From Escherichia coli (GTDB taxonomy: Bacteria > Pseudomonadota > Gammaproteobacteria > Enterobacterales > Enterobacteriaceae): 64,000 nt of DNA. Positions within the stretch are counted from its first letter, which is position 1, and every line of letters begins with the position of its first letter. The notes beneath the pieces are model-generated. The model was not told where the DNA came from. It did not search any database and saw nothing but the letters and a program-made list of their open reading frames with translations. This document shows positions 1,727-51,948 of the stretch, one piece after another. Where the stretch lies: the NCBI RefSeq assembly GCF_003334315.1, contig NZ_QOWR01000003.1; one strand, 5' to 3'. The position numbers were made by a program, and so were the translations under genes.

Positions 1727-3589
1727 ATGAGTTTTGATATTGCCAAATACCCGACCCTGGCACTGGTCGACTCCACCCAGGAGTTACGACTGTTGCCGAA
1801 AGAGAGTTTACCGAAACTCTGCGACGAACTGCGCCGCTATTTACTCGACAGCGTGAGCCGTTCCAGCGGGCACTTCGCCTCCGGGCTGGGCACGGTCGAA
1901 CTGACCGTGGCGCTGCACTATGTCTACAACACCCCGTTTGACCAATTGATTTGGGATGTGGGGCATCAGGCTTATCCGCATAAAATTTTGACCGGACGCC
2001 GCGACAAAATCGGCACCATCCGTCAGAAAGGCGGTCTGCACCCGTTCCCGTGGCGCGGCGAAAGCGAATATGACGTATTAAGCGTCGGGCATTCATCAAC
2101 CTCCATCAGTGCCGGAATTGGTATTGCGGTTGCTGCCGAGAAAGAAGGCAAAAATCGCCGCACCGTCTGTGTAATCGGCGATGGTGCGATTACCGCAGGC
2201 ATGGCGTTTGAAGCGATGAATCACGCGGGCGATATCCGTCCTGATATGCTGGTGGTTCTCAACGACAATGAAATGTCGATTTCCGAAAATGTCGGCGCGC
2301 TCAACAACCATCTGGCGCAGCTGCTTTCCGGTAAGCTTTACTCTTCACTGCGCGAAGGCGGGAAAAAAGTTTTCTCTGGCGTTCCGCCAATTAAAGAGCT
2401 GCTCAAACGCACCGAAGAACATATTAAAGGCATGGTAGTGCCTGGCACGTTGTTTGAAGAGCTGGGCTTTAACTACATCGGCCCGGTTGACGGTCACGAT
2501 GTGCTGGGGCTTATCACCACGCTTAAGAACATGCGCGACCTGAAAGGCCCGCAGTTCCTGCATATCATGACCAAAAAAGGTCGTGGTTATGAACCGGCAG
2601 AAAAAGACCCAATCACTTTCCACGCCGTGCCTAAATTTGATCCCTCCAGCGGTTGTTTGCCGAAAAGTAGCGGCGGTTTGCCGAGCTATTCAAAAATCTT
2701 TGGCGACTGGTTGTGCGAAACGGCAGCGAAAGACAACAAGCTGATGGCGATTACTCCGGCGATGCGTGAAGGTTCCGGCATGGTCGAGTTTTCACGTAAA
2801 TTCCCGGATCGCTACTTCGACGTGGCAATTGCCGAGCAACACGCGGTGACCTTTGCTGCGGGTCTGGCGATTGGTGGGTACAAACCCATTGTCGCGATTT
2901 ACTCCACTTTCCTGCAACGCGCCTATGATCAGGTGCTGCATGACGTGGCGATTCAAAAGCTTCCGGTCCTGTTCGCCATCGACCGCGCGGGCATTGTTGG
3001 TGCTGACGGTCAAACCCATCAGGGTGCTTTTGATCTCTCTTACCTGCGCTGCATACCGGAAATGGTCATTATGACCCCGAGCGATGAAAACGAATGTCGC
3101 CAGATGCTCTATACCGGCTATCACTATAACGATGGCCCGTCAGCGGTGCGCTACCCGCGTGGCAACGCGGTCGGCGTGGAACTGACGCCGCTGGAAAAAC
3201 TACCAATTGGCAAAGGCATTGTGAAGCGTCGTGGCGAGAAACTGGCGATCCTTAACTTTGGTACGCTGATGCCAGAAGCGGCGAAAGTCGCCGAATCGCT
3301 GAACGCCACGCTGGTCGATATGCGTTTTGTGAAACCGCTTGATGAAGCGTTAATTCTGGAAATGGCCGCCAGCCATGAAGCGCTGGTCACCGTAGAAGAA
3401 AACGCCATTATGGGCGGCGCAGGCAGCGGCGTGAACGAAGTGCTGATGGCCCATCGTAAACCAGTACCCGTGCTGAACATTGGCCTGCCGGACTTCTTTA
3501 TTCCGCAAGGAACTCAGGAAGAAATGCGCGCCGAACTCGGCCTCGATGCCGCTGGTATGGAAGCCAAAATCAAGGCCTGGCTGGCATAA
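1727..3589 (+). CDS. dxs: 1-deoxy-D-xylulose-5-phosphate synthase
   Basis: 620-aa [29 protein letters not shown]...; TPP-binding [18 protein letters not shown] motif. Confidence 0.97.
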
Positions 3590-5315: not shown

Positions 5316-6270
5316 ATCCTTTCCAGTCTAACGTGACAGGTTCGCCGTCACGAACAAAACAGAGTCCTTCTATATCGGCGGTCATTTGCCCGATACAGGT
5401 AAATGGTACGCCCAGATGTCCCAAAGCGACATCCAGCGCGCCACGGTTCAGTTCCGGCACCGTGAAACACAACTCGTAATCTTCGCCACCAGAGAGCGCC
5501 CAGCGCAGCGCCTGTTCCGGTTCAACGTGGCGAGAAAGTGCGTCAGAAAACGGCAGCAATGCCAGGCCAATACGTGCGCCGCAGTCGCTGGCTTTCACGA
5601 TATGCCCGAGATCGGAAATCAAACCGTCAGAGAGATCGATGGCTGAATTTGCCAGATCGCGCAGTGCCTGCCCCTGTAAAATACGCGGCGATGGACGGAG
5701 ATGACGTTTGATCAAGTAGTCCGCATCTTTAGCATCGGCAACCTGCAAACGGTTTTGCAAAATCGCCAGCCCGGCGGCGCTATCGCCCGGTGTACCGGTC
5801 ACATAGATCCAGTCACCCGGTTTCGCCCCAGAGCGCGTTAAGGCTCGTCCCATCGGAACAAAGCCGTGGATACCCAACGTCATTGATAATGGCCCACGCG
5901 TGGTATCGCCGCCAATGAGTTGCATATCGTAATAATTGAGAAGATCAAACAAACTGTCGCTGAAGGACTCAAGCCACGCTTCGTCTACGTCCGGTAAGGT
6001 TAATGCCAGCGTCAGCCAGGCCGGATCGGCCCCCATCGCTGCCAGATCGCTTAGGTTCACCGCCAGTGCTTTATAAGCCAGATCAGCAGGATCGATATCA
6101 GGGAGGAAGTGGTTGCCCGCCACCAGCGTATCAGTGCTGATCGCCAGGGTCTGTTTCTCGGGGATATTGAGAAGAGCGCAATCGTCGCCGATGCCCAGTT
6201 CGACATCAAGACGAGAACTTCTTACACGGTCAAAATAACGGGCAATCAGGGAGAACTCGCCACATGCCAT
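5293..6270 (-). CDS. thiL: Thiamine-monophosphate kinase
   Basis: 325-aa [19 protein letters not shown]...; 3' end overlaps pgpA start by 23 nt. Confidence 0.95.
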
Positions 6271-40114: not shown

Positions 40115-40134
40115 CCGTGACAACTTTATGACAG
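40115..40134 (-). promoter_or_regulatory. Pho box of the phoA promoter
   Basis: Reverse complement reads CTGTCATAAAGTTGTCACGG, about 60 nt upstream of phoA start. Confidence 0.65.
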
Positions 40135-40154
40135 CTGTTGAAAAGATTAACTTT

Positions 40155-40415
40155 TTACTGACGAGGATGCTTCAATAACTTCTTTACGTAATCGCGCAGC
40201 AGCTCCGTATCGTCGTCAGGAATGCTGGCATCGGGCTTTACCTCGTACAGCGCCCCCTCTACCTGATCAATCAACCGCTGTTGGTCATTTTGCGCCATAT
40301 TGCGAAGCATTGCAGTGACGATAATCTCCAAAGCTTCTACCTGCGCACACAGTTCTTTCGACTCTTCTTCTTTTTGGGCAAGCTTAAATAACAACTCAGC
40401 AATGAGATTTTTCAT
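40155..40415 (-). CDS. iraP: Anti-adapter protein IraP
   Basis: 86-aa [43 protein letters not shown]... Confidence 0.93.
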
Positions 40416-40877
40416 GTCTGTATTTCCTTATCCAAAGTATGGAGAAGTTAACATTATGTTTCACAACTTCATAGTGTCTGGAAGTATTATTTTTATGACA
40501 AAGGAAATACTTTGCGCAAATATTTTTTGTTTGATTACCAGCGAAACGTTTCTCTTATTTAAATAACTACCCACACAAAATATAGGCTTTTAATTATCAA
40601 CCTTTATTATAAATAAAAGTTATGAAATATATTCTCTTCGTTAACTTATAATTAAGAGAAAAAAACTCACCGCATGGCCATTTAAGCCAGGAATAAATTA
40701 GCTTCCCGTTCATCATTTTTGTGATCTTGCGCACATCTTTGAGATAACGCACTTTCTTCACCAGTACGTTGCACGCTTTGTCAGCAGAAGATTGCAACAA
40801 TCTTTCAGAAGGCCGCGAATCCCCCGTTTTGTCGTGGTAATGTATGCACTTTGTGTTAGACGGGATAGGTTTTTAAG

Positions 40878-41972
40878 ATGGAAAAACTGCGGGTAGGAAT
40901 CGTTTTTGGTGGTAAATCAGCGGAACATGAAGTGTCTCTGCAATCGGCAAAAAACATTGTCGATGCCATTGATAAAAGTCGCTTCGACGTTGTGCTGCTG
41001 GGCATTGATAAACAAGGGCAATGGCACGTCAGCGATGCCAGCAATTATCTGCTAAATGCAGACGATCCTGCCCATATTGCGTTGCGCCCTTCGGCGACCA
41101 GCCTTGCGCAGGTGCCAGGTAAACATGAGCATCAGCTTATCGACGCGCAAAACGGTCAGCCGTTGCCGACGGTGGATGTCATTTTCCCGATTGTCCACGG
41201 TACGCTGGGCGAAGATGGTTCCTTGCAGGGAATGCTGCGGGTCGCCAATTTACCGTTTGTAGGTTCTGATGTTCTGGCTTCAGCAGCCTGTATGGATAAA
41301 GATGTCACCAAACGTCTGCTACGCGATGCCGGGCTGAACATTGCGCCATTTATTACCCTGACGCGCGCTAATCGTCACAACATCAGTTTTGCCGAAGTGG
41401 AGTCTAAACTGGGGTTACCACTGTTTGTAAAACCGGCTAATCAGGGCTCTTCTGTTGGTGTCAGCAAAGTAACCAGTGAAGAACAGTACGCAATTGCCGT
41501 CGATCTGGCGTTCGAGTTCGATCATAAAGTGATCGTTGAGCAAGGGATCAAAGGTCGTGAGATCGAATGCGCAGTTCTGGGCAACGACAATCCGCAAGCC
41601 AGCACCTGTGGCGAGATCGTACTCACCAGCGATTTCTATGCCTACGACACCAAGTACATTGACGAAGATGGCGCGAAAGTGGTAGTTCCGGCAGCCATTG
41701 CACCAGAGATCAACGATAAGATCCGGGCGATTGCCGTTCAGGCTTATCAGACGTTGGGATGCGCAGGCATGGCGCGTGTAGACGTGTTTTTAACCCCAGA
41801 GAACGAAGTGGTGATCAACGAGATCAACACACTGCCTGGCTTCACCAACATCAGTATGTATCCGAAGCTGTGGCAAGCCAGCGGTCTGGGTTACACCGAT
41901 CTGATCACACGTTTGATTGAGCTGGCGCTGGAGCGTCACGCTGCGGATAACGCATTGAAAACCACAATGTAA
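40878..41972 (+). CDS. ddlA: D-alanine--D-alanine ligase A
   Basis: 364-aa [53 protein letters not shown]... Confidence 0.97.
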
Positions 41973-46671: not shown

Positions 46672-50346
<3,675 letters not shown>

Positions 50347-50868
50347 TTGTCATCCCTCCTCAGGGACGTAATAAGTTGATCCATCAATTATCAATGCATA
50401 GAAAACATATTATGTTTCGCGCTAACGATTATGCTGTGTTACAGACGAATGGTTCAATTATTCTTTCCCCTAAGTCCGAATGTGGACATATATAATTTAT
50501 GGAGAAAAACACGCATCGAATTGATAAAAACACCATATTTCAATATGTTGCAGATGATGTTATTTTTGATACATACGCGTCACAAATATCACGGACACAA
50601 ACCAGATAAATATCCTATCAATATGCAACAAAGTTTTAATTATTCAATTTATAGCAGGGCAACCAAACTCCCAAAATAATAACCAAGAGCTATTAATAAA
50701 GATTAAAAATATTTTCAGTGAATATGAAATTATTGCTATTTCTATTACAACGATGTCCTGGTCTCTCTTTCATTCTCTTCTTGTCAACATCGCGACAACT
50801 TTCGTAAAACACTCCTGCCCCGCTTCAGGTATACTGTGCACCTTAATTCCACAAACATCAGGCAGACC

Positions 50869-51843
50869 ATGACAGACTTAATCCAACGCCCTCGTCGCCT
50901 GCGCAAATCTCCTGCGCTGCGCGCTATGTTTGAAGAGACAACACTTAGCCTTAACGACCTGGTGTTGCCGATCTTTGTTGAAGAAGAAATTGACGACTAC
51001 AAAGCCGTTGAAGCCATGCCAGGCGTGATGCGCATTCCAGAGAAACATCTGGCACGCGAAATTGAACGCATCGCCAACGCCGGTATTCGTTCCGTGATGA
51101 CTTTCGGCATCTCTCACCATACCGATGAAACCGGCAGCGACGCCTGGCGGGAAGATGGACTGGTGGCGCGTATGTCGCGCATCTGCAAGCAGACTGTGCC
51201 AGAAATGATCGTCATGTCAGACACTTGTTTCTGTGAATACACTTCTCACGGTCACTGCGGTGTGCTGTGCGAGCATGGCGTCGACAACGACGCGACTCTG
51301 GAAAATTTAGGCAAGCAAGCCGTGGTTGCAGCTGCTGCAGGCGCAGACTTCATCGCCCCTTCCGCCGCGATGGACGGCCAGGTACAGGCGATTCGTCAGG
51401 CGCTGGACGCTGCAGGCTTTAAAGATACGGCGATTATGTCGTATTCGACCAAGTTCGCCTCTTCCTTTTATGGCCCGTTCCGTGAAGCTGCCGGAAGCGC
51501 ATTAAAAGGCGACCGCAAAAGCTATCAGATGAACCCAATGAACCGTCGCGAGGCGATTCGTGAATCACTGCTGGATGAAGCCCAGGGCGCAGACTGCCTG
51601 ATGGTTAAACCTGCTGGAGCGTACCTCGACATCGTGCGTGAGCTGCGTGAACGTACTGAATTGCCGATTGGCGCGTATCAGGTGAGCGGTGAGTACGCGA
51701 TGATTAAGTTCGCCGCGCTGGCGGGTGCTATAGATGAAGAGAAAGTCGTGCTCGAAAGCTTAGGTTCAATTAAGCGTGCGGGTGCGGATCTGATTTTCAG
51801 CTACTTTGCGCTGGATTTGGCTGAGAAGAAGATTCTGCGTTAA
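50869..51843 (+). CDS. hemB: Delta-aminolevulinic acid dehydratase (porphobilinogen synthase)
   Basis: ORF track 50836..51843 trimmed to ATG 50869 ([26 protein letters not shown]...), 324 aa. Confidence 0.95.
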
Positions 51844-51849
51844 TTTTTT

Positions 51850-51935
51850 TCCTCTCAGAAAGGGGGAGTTAACCTGTTGAAAGTACGGTGAACGCCCCCT
51901 CACCCTAACCCTCTCCCCAAGGGGGCGAGGGAACC
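51850..51935. repeat. GC-rich imperfect palindromic intergenic element (boxC-like)
   Basis: CCTCTCAGAAAGGGGGAG and GCCCCCTCACCCTAACCCTCTCCCCAAGGGGGCGAGGGAACC between convergent hemB and tauD. Confidence 0.35.
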
Positions 51936-51948
51936 GTCCGCACTCGTA

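Follow-up and report, generated by a model that had tools for sequence, protein, structure and literature searches.

Is the long, AT-rich DNA that separates a divergently transcribed autotransporter gene from hemB in Escherichia coli a control region through which H-NS keeps a surface protein silent? We addressed this question in a 64,000-nucleotide stretch of contig NZ_QOWR01000003.1 (called the window here), in which an earlier note, made from the letters alone, had singled out a 522-bp span at 50347-50868. This span was found to be the exact gap between two start codons, the minus-strand ATG of the autotransporter gene at 50346 and the plus-strand ATG of hemB at 50869. The product of the autotransporter gene (47383-50346, minus strand) is a protein of 987 aa in which Pfam recognised a Pertactin domain (PF03212, passenger) and an Autotransporter domain (PF03797, beta-barrel), and the barrel is similar to those of Vag8 and BrkA. 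A pertactin-like passenger joined to a barrel, encoded by a gene between hemB and iprA, identifies the protein as a type Va autotransporter. On the other side of the spacer, hemB (50869-51843, plus strand) encodes porphobilinogen synthase (324 aa).

The genes of the window run in the order sbmA, ampH, iprA, autotransporter, hemB and tauDCBA, as they do in K-12 and CFT073, and the 522-bp region was found in 5423 of the 5426 complete E. coli genomes, with identities of 82-100%. The spacer of strain CP53 was 100% identical and its annotation was the same as that of the window. The counterpart of the autotransporter gene in K-12 is yaiT, a pseudogene disrupted by IS3, and in Salmonella the gene is named yaiU or seaB. 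We take its name in UPEC to be upaC; UpaC (c0478) is presumably encoded by the gene that adjoins hemB in CFT073, an assignment that fits in position, size and accession (AAN78956.1). A preprint on SeaB (10.64898/2026.01.14.699485) describes seaB, annotated as yaiU or yaiT, as always adjoining hemB and lying upstream of iprA. In the flanking DNA, a small protein gene of 19 codons (57 nt), ytiB (b4767), lies antisense within the first yaiT fragment of K-12 (positions 5593-5649 of that locus, L003). About 65 bp of the convergent spacer between hemB and tauD (51848-51947) are missing from CFT073 and Ecol_732, and the same spacer is of nearly equal length in K-12 (106 bp). These extra ~65 bp are GC-rich and carry an inverted repeat (51861-51874 and 51887-51900); they probably represent either a repeat element or a terminator that acts in both directions.

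The description of the spacer as AT-rich was borne out by its GC content, which was 0.349 compared to 0.511 for the whole window. DNA as AT-rich as this makes up the lowest 1.0% of the 522-bp segments in the 64 kb, and only two other tracts, at 40117-41006 and 55199-56184, reached a GC of 0.37 or less. The remaining intergenic regions of the window had GC contents of 0.40-0.58. The A/T run that had been cited as an example, ATATATAATTTAT, was located at 50488-50500. TpA steps had a frequency of 0.103 over the 300 bp starting at 50488, twice the window average of 0.047 and within the top 1.3% of 300-bp segments. The 5' part of the autotransporter coding sequence was AT-rich too (GC 0.35-0.41), and A+T is well above average over the promoter and the few hundred bp that surround it, as is the case for H-NS-silenced promoters. 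The tract at 55199-56184, which lies upstream of tauA and has GC values down to 0.23, exceeds the spacer between hemB and the autotransporter gene in AT-richness.

A long spacer could exist simply because it harbours an unannotated gene, be it a small protein or a small RNA. AT-rich spacers do sometimes encode sRNAs, and the program-made list of open reading frames contains an 82-aa ORF with an ATG start at 50431-50679 on the plus strand, which the earlier note had considered unconvincing. We agree with that assessment. The ORF falls in the least conserved stretch of the spacer and is missing from several E. coli, including CFT073 and SCPM-O-B-8794, from Escherichia sp. MOD1-EC7003, and from all other genera. 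None of the ORFs of 40 aa or more recurred across 31 orthologous spacers, and the spacer ORFs had no match in NCBIfam; both the 82-aa ORF and a 63-aa ORF, unconserved and without a family match, were therefore rejected as genes. An upstream ORF in the 5'UTR (ATGGATCAAC...) was rejected since its ATG is missing in several genera, and an N-terminal extension of the autotransporter was rejected on account of an in-frame TGA two codons 5' of the ATG. Searching the spacer against Rfam at permissive E-values returned only three snoRNA matches at chance level (E = 1.8-5.1), none of them near threshold. A terminator scan of the spacer revealed no terminator-like site, no tandem repeats were found in it, and its direct and inverted repeats were short and resembled those expected by chance in AT-rich DNA. 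The interior of the spacer also carries no annotated feature in CP53, K-12 (where it is 523 bp long, NC_000913.3 389,728-390,250) or CFT073 (525 bp). A hidden gene is therefore a most improbable explanation of the spacer.

A scan with one genome per species yielded 35 related loci, in 28 of which hemB lay divergently upstream of the autotransporter gene, and 31 spacer sequences were used for alignment and for a conservation profile. The layout was shared by at least 10 enterobacterial genera, and the genera with the hemB layout include Escherichia, Citrobacter, Pseudocitrobacter, Enterobacter, Leclercia, Lelliottia, Kosakonia, Phytobacter and Huaxiibacter. Spacers across these genera measured 439-594 bp, with GC contents of 0.31-0.36 compared to 0.48-0.57 for the entire loci. 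The 31-spacer alignment divided the spacer into five parts, namely the autotransporter 5'UTR, its promoter, a palindrome, an AT-rich centre and a block next to hemB. This anatomy and its conservation are direct observations of the present work, which adds to what is published a cross-genus map of the parts that are conserved in sequence, as against a centre that is conserved in composition only. One further locus (L022), a 2-kb contig in a metagenome-assembled genome of Segatella copri, carried a fragment of an enterobacterial autotransporter with 75% identity, and is most likely a binning contaminant.

A consensus scan predicted a sigma-70 promoter for the autotransporter gene at 50428-50457 on the minus strand, with TTGAAC as the -35 hexamer (50457 to 50452), CATAAT as the -10 hexamer (50433 to 50428) and 18 nt between them, a spacing within the 16-18 nt of sigma-70 promoters. 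Three promoter-like sites were present in the spacer, compared to 2.7 expected from shuffled sequences. Both hexamers and the 18-nt spacing of TTGAAC-18-CATAAT were identical in 31 of 31 spacers, and in Salmonella, and the distance from the -10 element to the autotransporter ATG ranged from 69 to 85 nt. We infer a reasonably good, fairly strong promoter of predicted sigma-70 type. From the invariant placement of its two hexamers, transcription would therefore start near 50421 (predicted range 50420-50423, minus strand), giving a predicted 5'UTR of ~75 nt rather than 522 nt. The earlier note had spoken of an unusually long leader. The spacer is indeed long, but with a predicted 5'UTR of only ~75 nt the term upstream region fits it better, and the AT-rich part, most of which precedes the predicted promoter, is not transcribed leader. 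A promoter lying so near the ATG does not by itself refute silencing, because the refutation set out in the earlier note also required that H-NS occupancy be absent.

We next consider whether the length of the spacer could instead serve mainly hemB, for example by accommodating a distal hemB promoter followed by a long regulatory leader. A plus-strand promoter-like site, TTGATA-17-TATGTT at 50521-50549, would suit such an arrangement, but it lies in non-conserved sequence and is one of three such sites, a number in line with the 2.7 expected from shuffling. Towards hemB, conservation was limited to the last ~74 bp (50795-50868, plus strand), a block with GC 0.41-0.54 across genera that contains the conserved motif CAACTTTCGTAAAACA (50796-50811), a -10-like TATACT (50830-50835) and a conserved TTCCACAAACATCAGGCAGACC that reaches the hemB ATG, all on the plus strand. 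These elements suggest that the 74-bp block is the hemB promoter; transcription of hemB is predicted to begin near 50842 (plus strand). Informative in this regard was Buttiauxella izardii (locus L014, 3300-4000), where the orthologous autotransporter gene does not adjoin hemB. Upstream of it the DNA is nevertheless still AT-rich (500 bp with GC 0.296) and includes a promoter-like site with TTGAAC, and both the 5'UTR and the stem of a hairpin in it are retained. Since Buttiauxella retains the tract without hemB as a neighbour, the AT-rich tract goes with the autotransporter gene and not with hemB. We consider it very unlikely that the long spacer is chiefly for hemB; the best explanation is that roughly the last 74 bp suffice for hemB and that the rest of the spacer belongs to the autotransporter gene.

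The AT-rich centre (50488-50794; GC 0.30) is the part that we propose as a platform for H-NS nucleation and spreading. In the 31 spacers it measured 231-375 bp with a GC of 0.22-0.32 (mean 0.28), and its sequence could not be aligned between genera. It was hypervariable even within E. coli, where the window and CFT073 were 63-78% identical in the centre and ~99% identical in hemB. Three matches to the H-NS motif TCGATAAATT were found at no more than two mismatches, where ~0.7 was expected from the density in the window, which is a modest signal; the best H-NS-like match was TCCATAAATT (50494-50503, minus strand). Modelled curvature peaked at ~20 degrees per turn at 50510-50527, within the top 1% of the window, again a modest value and one obtained with a homemade wedge model.

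The weakness of these motif and curvature signals, together with the lack of sequence conservation between genera and the low identity within E. coli, is what would be seen if the centre were neutral filler that had drifted to high A+T by mutational bias and played no part in H-NS silencing, with the promoter, the palindrome and the 5'UTR, all conserved, as the only means of control. Mutational bias could indeed account for part of the A+T content of DNA that is free of constraint. Drift alone, however, sits poorly with a centre of 231-375 bp that at least 10 genera have retained against the deletion bias of bacteria, and with a GC content far below the 0.40-0.58 of other intergenic regions in the window. 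In addition, most of the EMSA probe bound by H-NS in Salmonella is made up of the centre and the core promoter. That composition and length persist in at least 10 genera without conservation of sequence speaks against pure neutral filler, and we regard a centre without any role in silencing as unlikely. We infer that the centre serves as an H-NS platform in this strain.

The claim that the autotransporter promoter is of the H-NS-silenced type had been drawn from composition, and is now backed by published experiments on the orthologous region of Salmonella. H-NS binds the yaiU promoter of Salmonella enterica serovar Typhimurium in EMSA, ITC and ChIP-qPCR, with ITC Kd values of 0.29-0.46 uM across the four promoters tested, and c-di-GMP lowers H-NS binding at the yaiU promoter (PMC10657408). 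The authors of that study refer to yaiU as a gene whose repression by H-NS had been reported before. Their primer yaiU-ChIP-R, TTGTCATCCCTCCTCAGGGAC, has the exact sequence of 50347-50367 of the window. Mapped onto an S. enterica locus, the EMSA probe spans 2626-2926 and the ChIP amplicon spans 2702-3000, and these correspond, by position, to ~50421-50721 and ~50347-50645 of the window, respectively. For E. coli, PMC5012682 names UpaC, with reference to Allsopp 2012, as one of the H-NS-repressed autotransporters of UPEC, and a genomic SELEX study of K-12 placed an H-NS site in the yaiU-yaiV spacer, which is at the opposite end of the gene. Our literature search returned no paper that joined yaiT with H-NS or yaiT with UpaC. 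Silencing by H-NS at this locus is thus already published, and is ordinary. Taken together, we consider it probable (about 0.8) that the spacer controls both of the divergent genes that flank it, and that the autotransporter promoter within it is silenced by H-NS from the AT-rich centre. The binding itself was demonstrated on the Salmonella orthologue, from which it would extend to the window by analogy.

Silencing may then proceed as follows. The predicted sigma-70 promoter, ~75 nt from the ATG, is flanked upstream by ~300 bp of 70% A+T and downstream by the AT-rich 5' coding sequence. H-NS would nucleate on the AT-rich, TpA-rich and locally curved centre and then spread or bridge over the promoter, leaving the adhesin gene silent in laboratory conditions. 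Relief would come from reduced binding of H-NS, as brought about by c-di-GMP in Salmonella, or from an anti-silencer. hemB would escape silencing because its promoter block of 74 bp is situated past the AT-rich tract and has a normal GC content.

How far the analogy reaches can be judged by comparing the loci. Salmonella yaiU (seaB) is alike in the order hemB, autotransporter, iprA, ampH and sbmA, and its spacer of 512 bp with GC 0.344 is close to the 522 bp and 0.349 of the window. It shares the TTGAAC-18-CATAAT promoter, the palindrome GTCCGAATCCGGAC, the 5'UTR and the hairpin. It differs in belonging to another genus, in an AT-rich centre that cannot be aligned, and in having prpE beyond hemB where the window has tauD; moreover, it is in Salmonella that binding of H-NS and its relief by c-di-GMP were measured. 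The gene beside hemB in CFT073 belongs to the same species and encodes a protein of 995 aa with 86% amino-acid identity to that of the window. Its spacer (525 bp, GC 0.331) has the same promoter-proximal 150 bp and hemB-proximal blocks, but the central ~200 bp are only ~63-78% identical and the passenger domain is another allele. UpaG, UpaH and F9 fimbriae are also surface adhesins silenced in vitro by H-NS on AT-rich upstream DNA. Unlike these loci, which are mostly strain-specific or island-borne, the locus of the window occupies a fixed position in the core genome, and its promoter, palindrome and 5'UTR are conserved across genera.

Alleles of the autotransporter (47383-50346; loci L004, L005, L019, L020 and L042) were out of step with the species tree, the protein of the window being 87.7% identical to that of S. 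enterica, 86.0% to that of E. coli CFT073 and 71.5% to that of E. coli SCPM-O-B-8794. The SCPM-O-B-8794 allele was in turn 83.9% identical to the allele of Citrobacter braakii. hemB tracked the species, with 99.4-100% identity within E. coli. The signal peptide MHSWKKKLVVSQLALACTLAITSQANA was common to E. coli, E. whittamii and Salmonella and showed one substitution in C. braakii. These patterns suggest the exchange of passenger-domain alleles between genera, or a very old polymorphism. Divergence within E. coli at 50497-50700 was far above what neutral divergence allows, given flanking hemB genes that are ~99% identical, and ~41% of complete E. coli genomes carried spacer alleles that were only 80-90% identical overall. 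The CFT073-type centre was similar to the centres of E. whittamii and the cryptic clades.

The predicted 5'UTR (~75 nt; 50347-50421, minus strand) was highly conserved. The ~60 nt next to the ATG (50347 to ~50405) were near-invariant among genera, with identities of 0.99-0.88 over 50347-50396 in the 31 sequences. Folding predicted a hairpin, CGUCCCU-GAGG-AGGGAUG, at 50351-50368 (minus strand; -10.9 kcal/mol, z = -3.15), whose stem is predicted to pair the AGGGA of the Shine-Dalgarno region, that is, half of the Shine-Dalgarno AGGAGG. Among 17 distinct sequences, 96.6% of the alignment cells in the stem were paired; no two-sided covariation was seen in these sequences, and three of the seven pairs never vary. 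In Buttiauxella the loop is changed from GAGG to UGGG. An RNA thermometer was rejected, as the same structure and the same pairing probability of the Shine-Dalgarno region were predicted from 20 to 45 C, and the fold of the complete 5'UTR was no better than that of shuffled sequences (z = -1.3). The 5'UTR also contains a conserved palindrome, TTGAT-CC-ATCAA (TTGATCCATCAA; 50376-50387), within the minus-strand block TGCATTGATAATTGATGGATCAAC. It is not an RNA hairpin, because its 2-nt loop is too small, and it could be a candidate site for protein binding or RNA pairing. By-eye inspection of the 5'UTR for Fur, FNR and NsrR sites found weak resemblance only.

A second conserved palindrome, of the form GTCCG-N4-CGGAC in most genera and GTCCGAATGTGGAC here, lies at 50474-50487, its centre preceding the predicted transcription start by ~60 bp. 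Across the 31 spacers its arms are kept, the N4 is free and changes in the arms are non-compensatory, a pattern more readily explained by protein binding than by an RNA stem. It was the sole match at no more than one mismatch within the 64-kb window. We regard it as a candidate transcription-factor site.

These features raise the possibility that the main switch is not H-NS alone but a dedicated transcription factor at the -60 palindrome, in the position of a class-I activator or an anti-silencer, with the invariant 5'UTR (the TTGAT repeats and the Shine-Dalgarno hairpin) adding post-transcriptional control. Such a regulator would complement the H-NS explanation and does not exclude H-NS. It would account for the pattern of conservation and the uniqueness of the palindrome, for a 5'UTR that is 88-99% conserved compared to protein identities of 55-88%, and for the stability of the hairpin. 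On the other hand, no similar palindrome was found near iprA, the neighbouring gene for a CRP-family regulator, or elsewhere in the window; to name IprA as the factor would be pure speculation. The hairpin, without two-sided covariation and with no melting predicted between 20 and 45 C, and a full 5'UTR fold no better than shuffles, also argue against the post-transcriptional part. We therefore see a dedicated regulator as a plausible addition that falls short of even odds. More tentative still is the idea of a genus-spanning control module for the adhesin, in which the 14-bp palindrome at -60 would act in activation or anti-silencing, the near-invariant 5'UTR with its TTGAT repeats and hairpin at the ribosome-binding site would act post-transcriptionally, and the centre would be selected for its composition and length and not for its sequence. 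The palindrome and the 5'UTR are minor leads that go past the published picture.

Silencing of the autotransporter promoter by H-NS would explain why UpaC, YaiT and SeaB are unseen in laboratory cultures, and the gene may be switched on in the host. The cross-genus map of the spacer provides targets for finding the signal or factor that activates this widely conserved adhesin.
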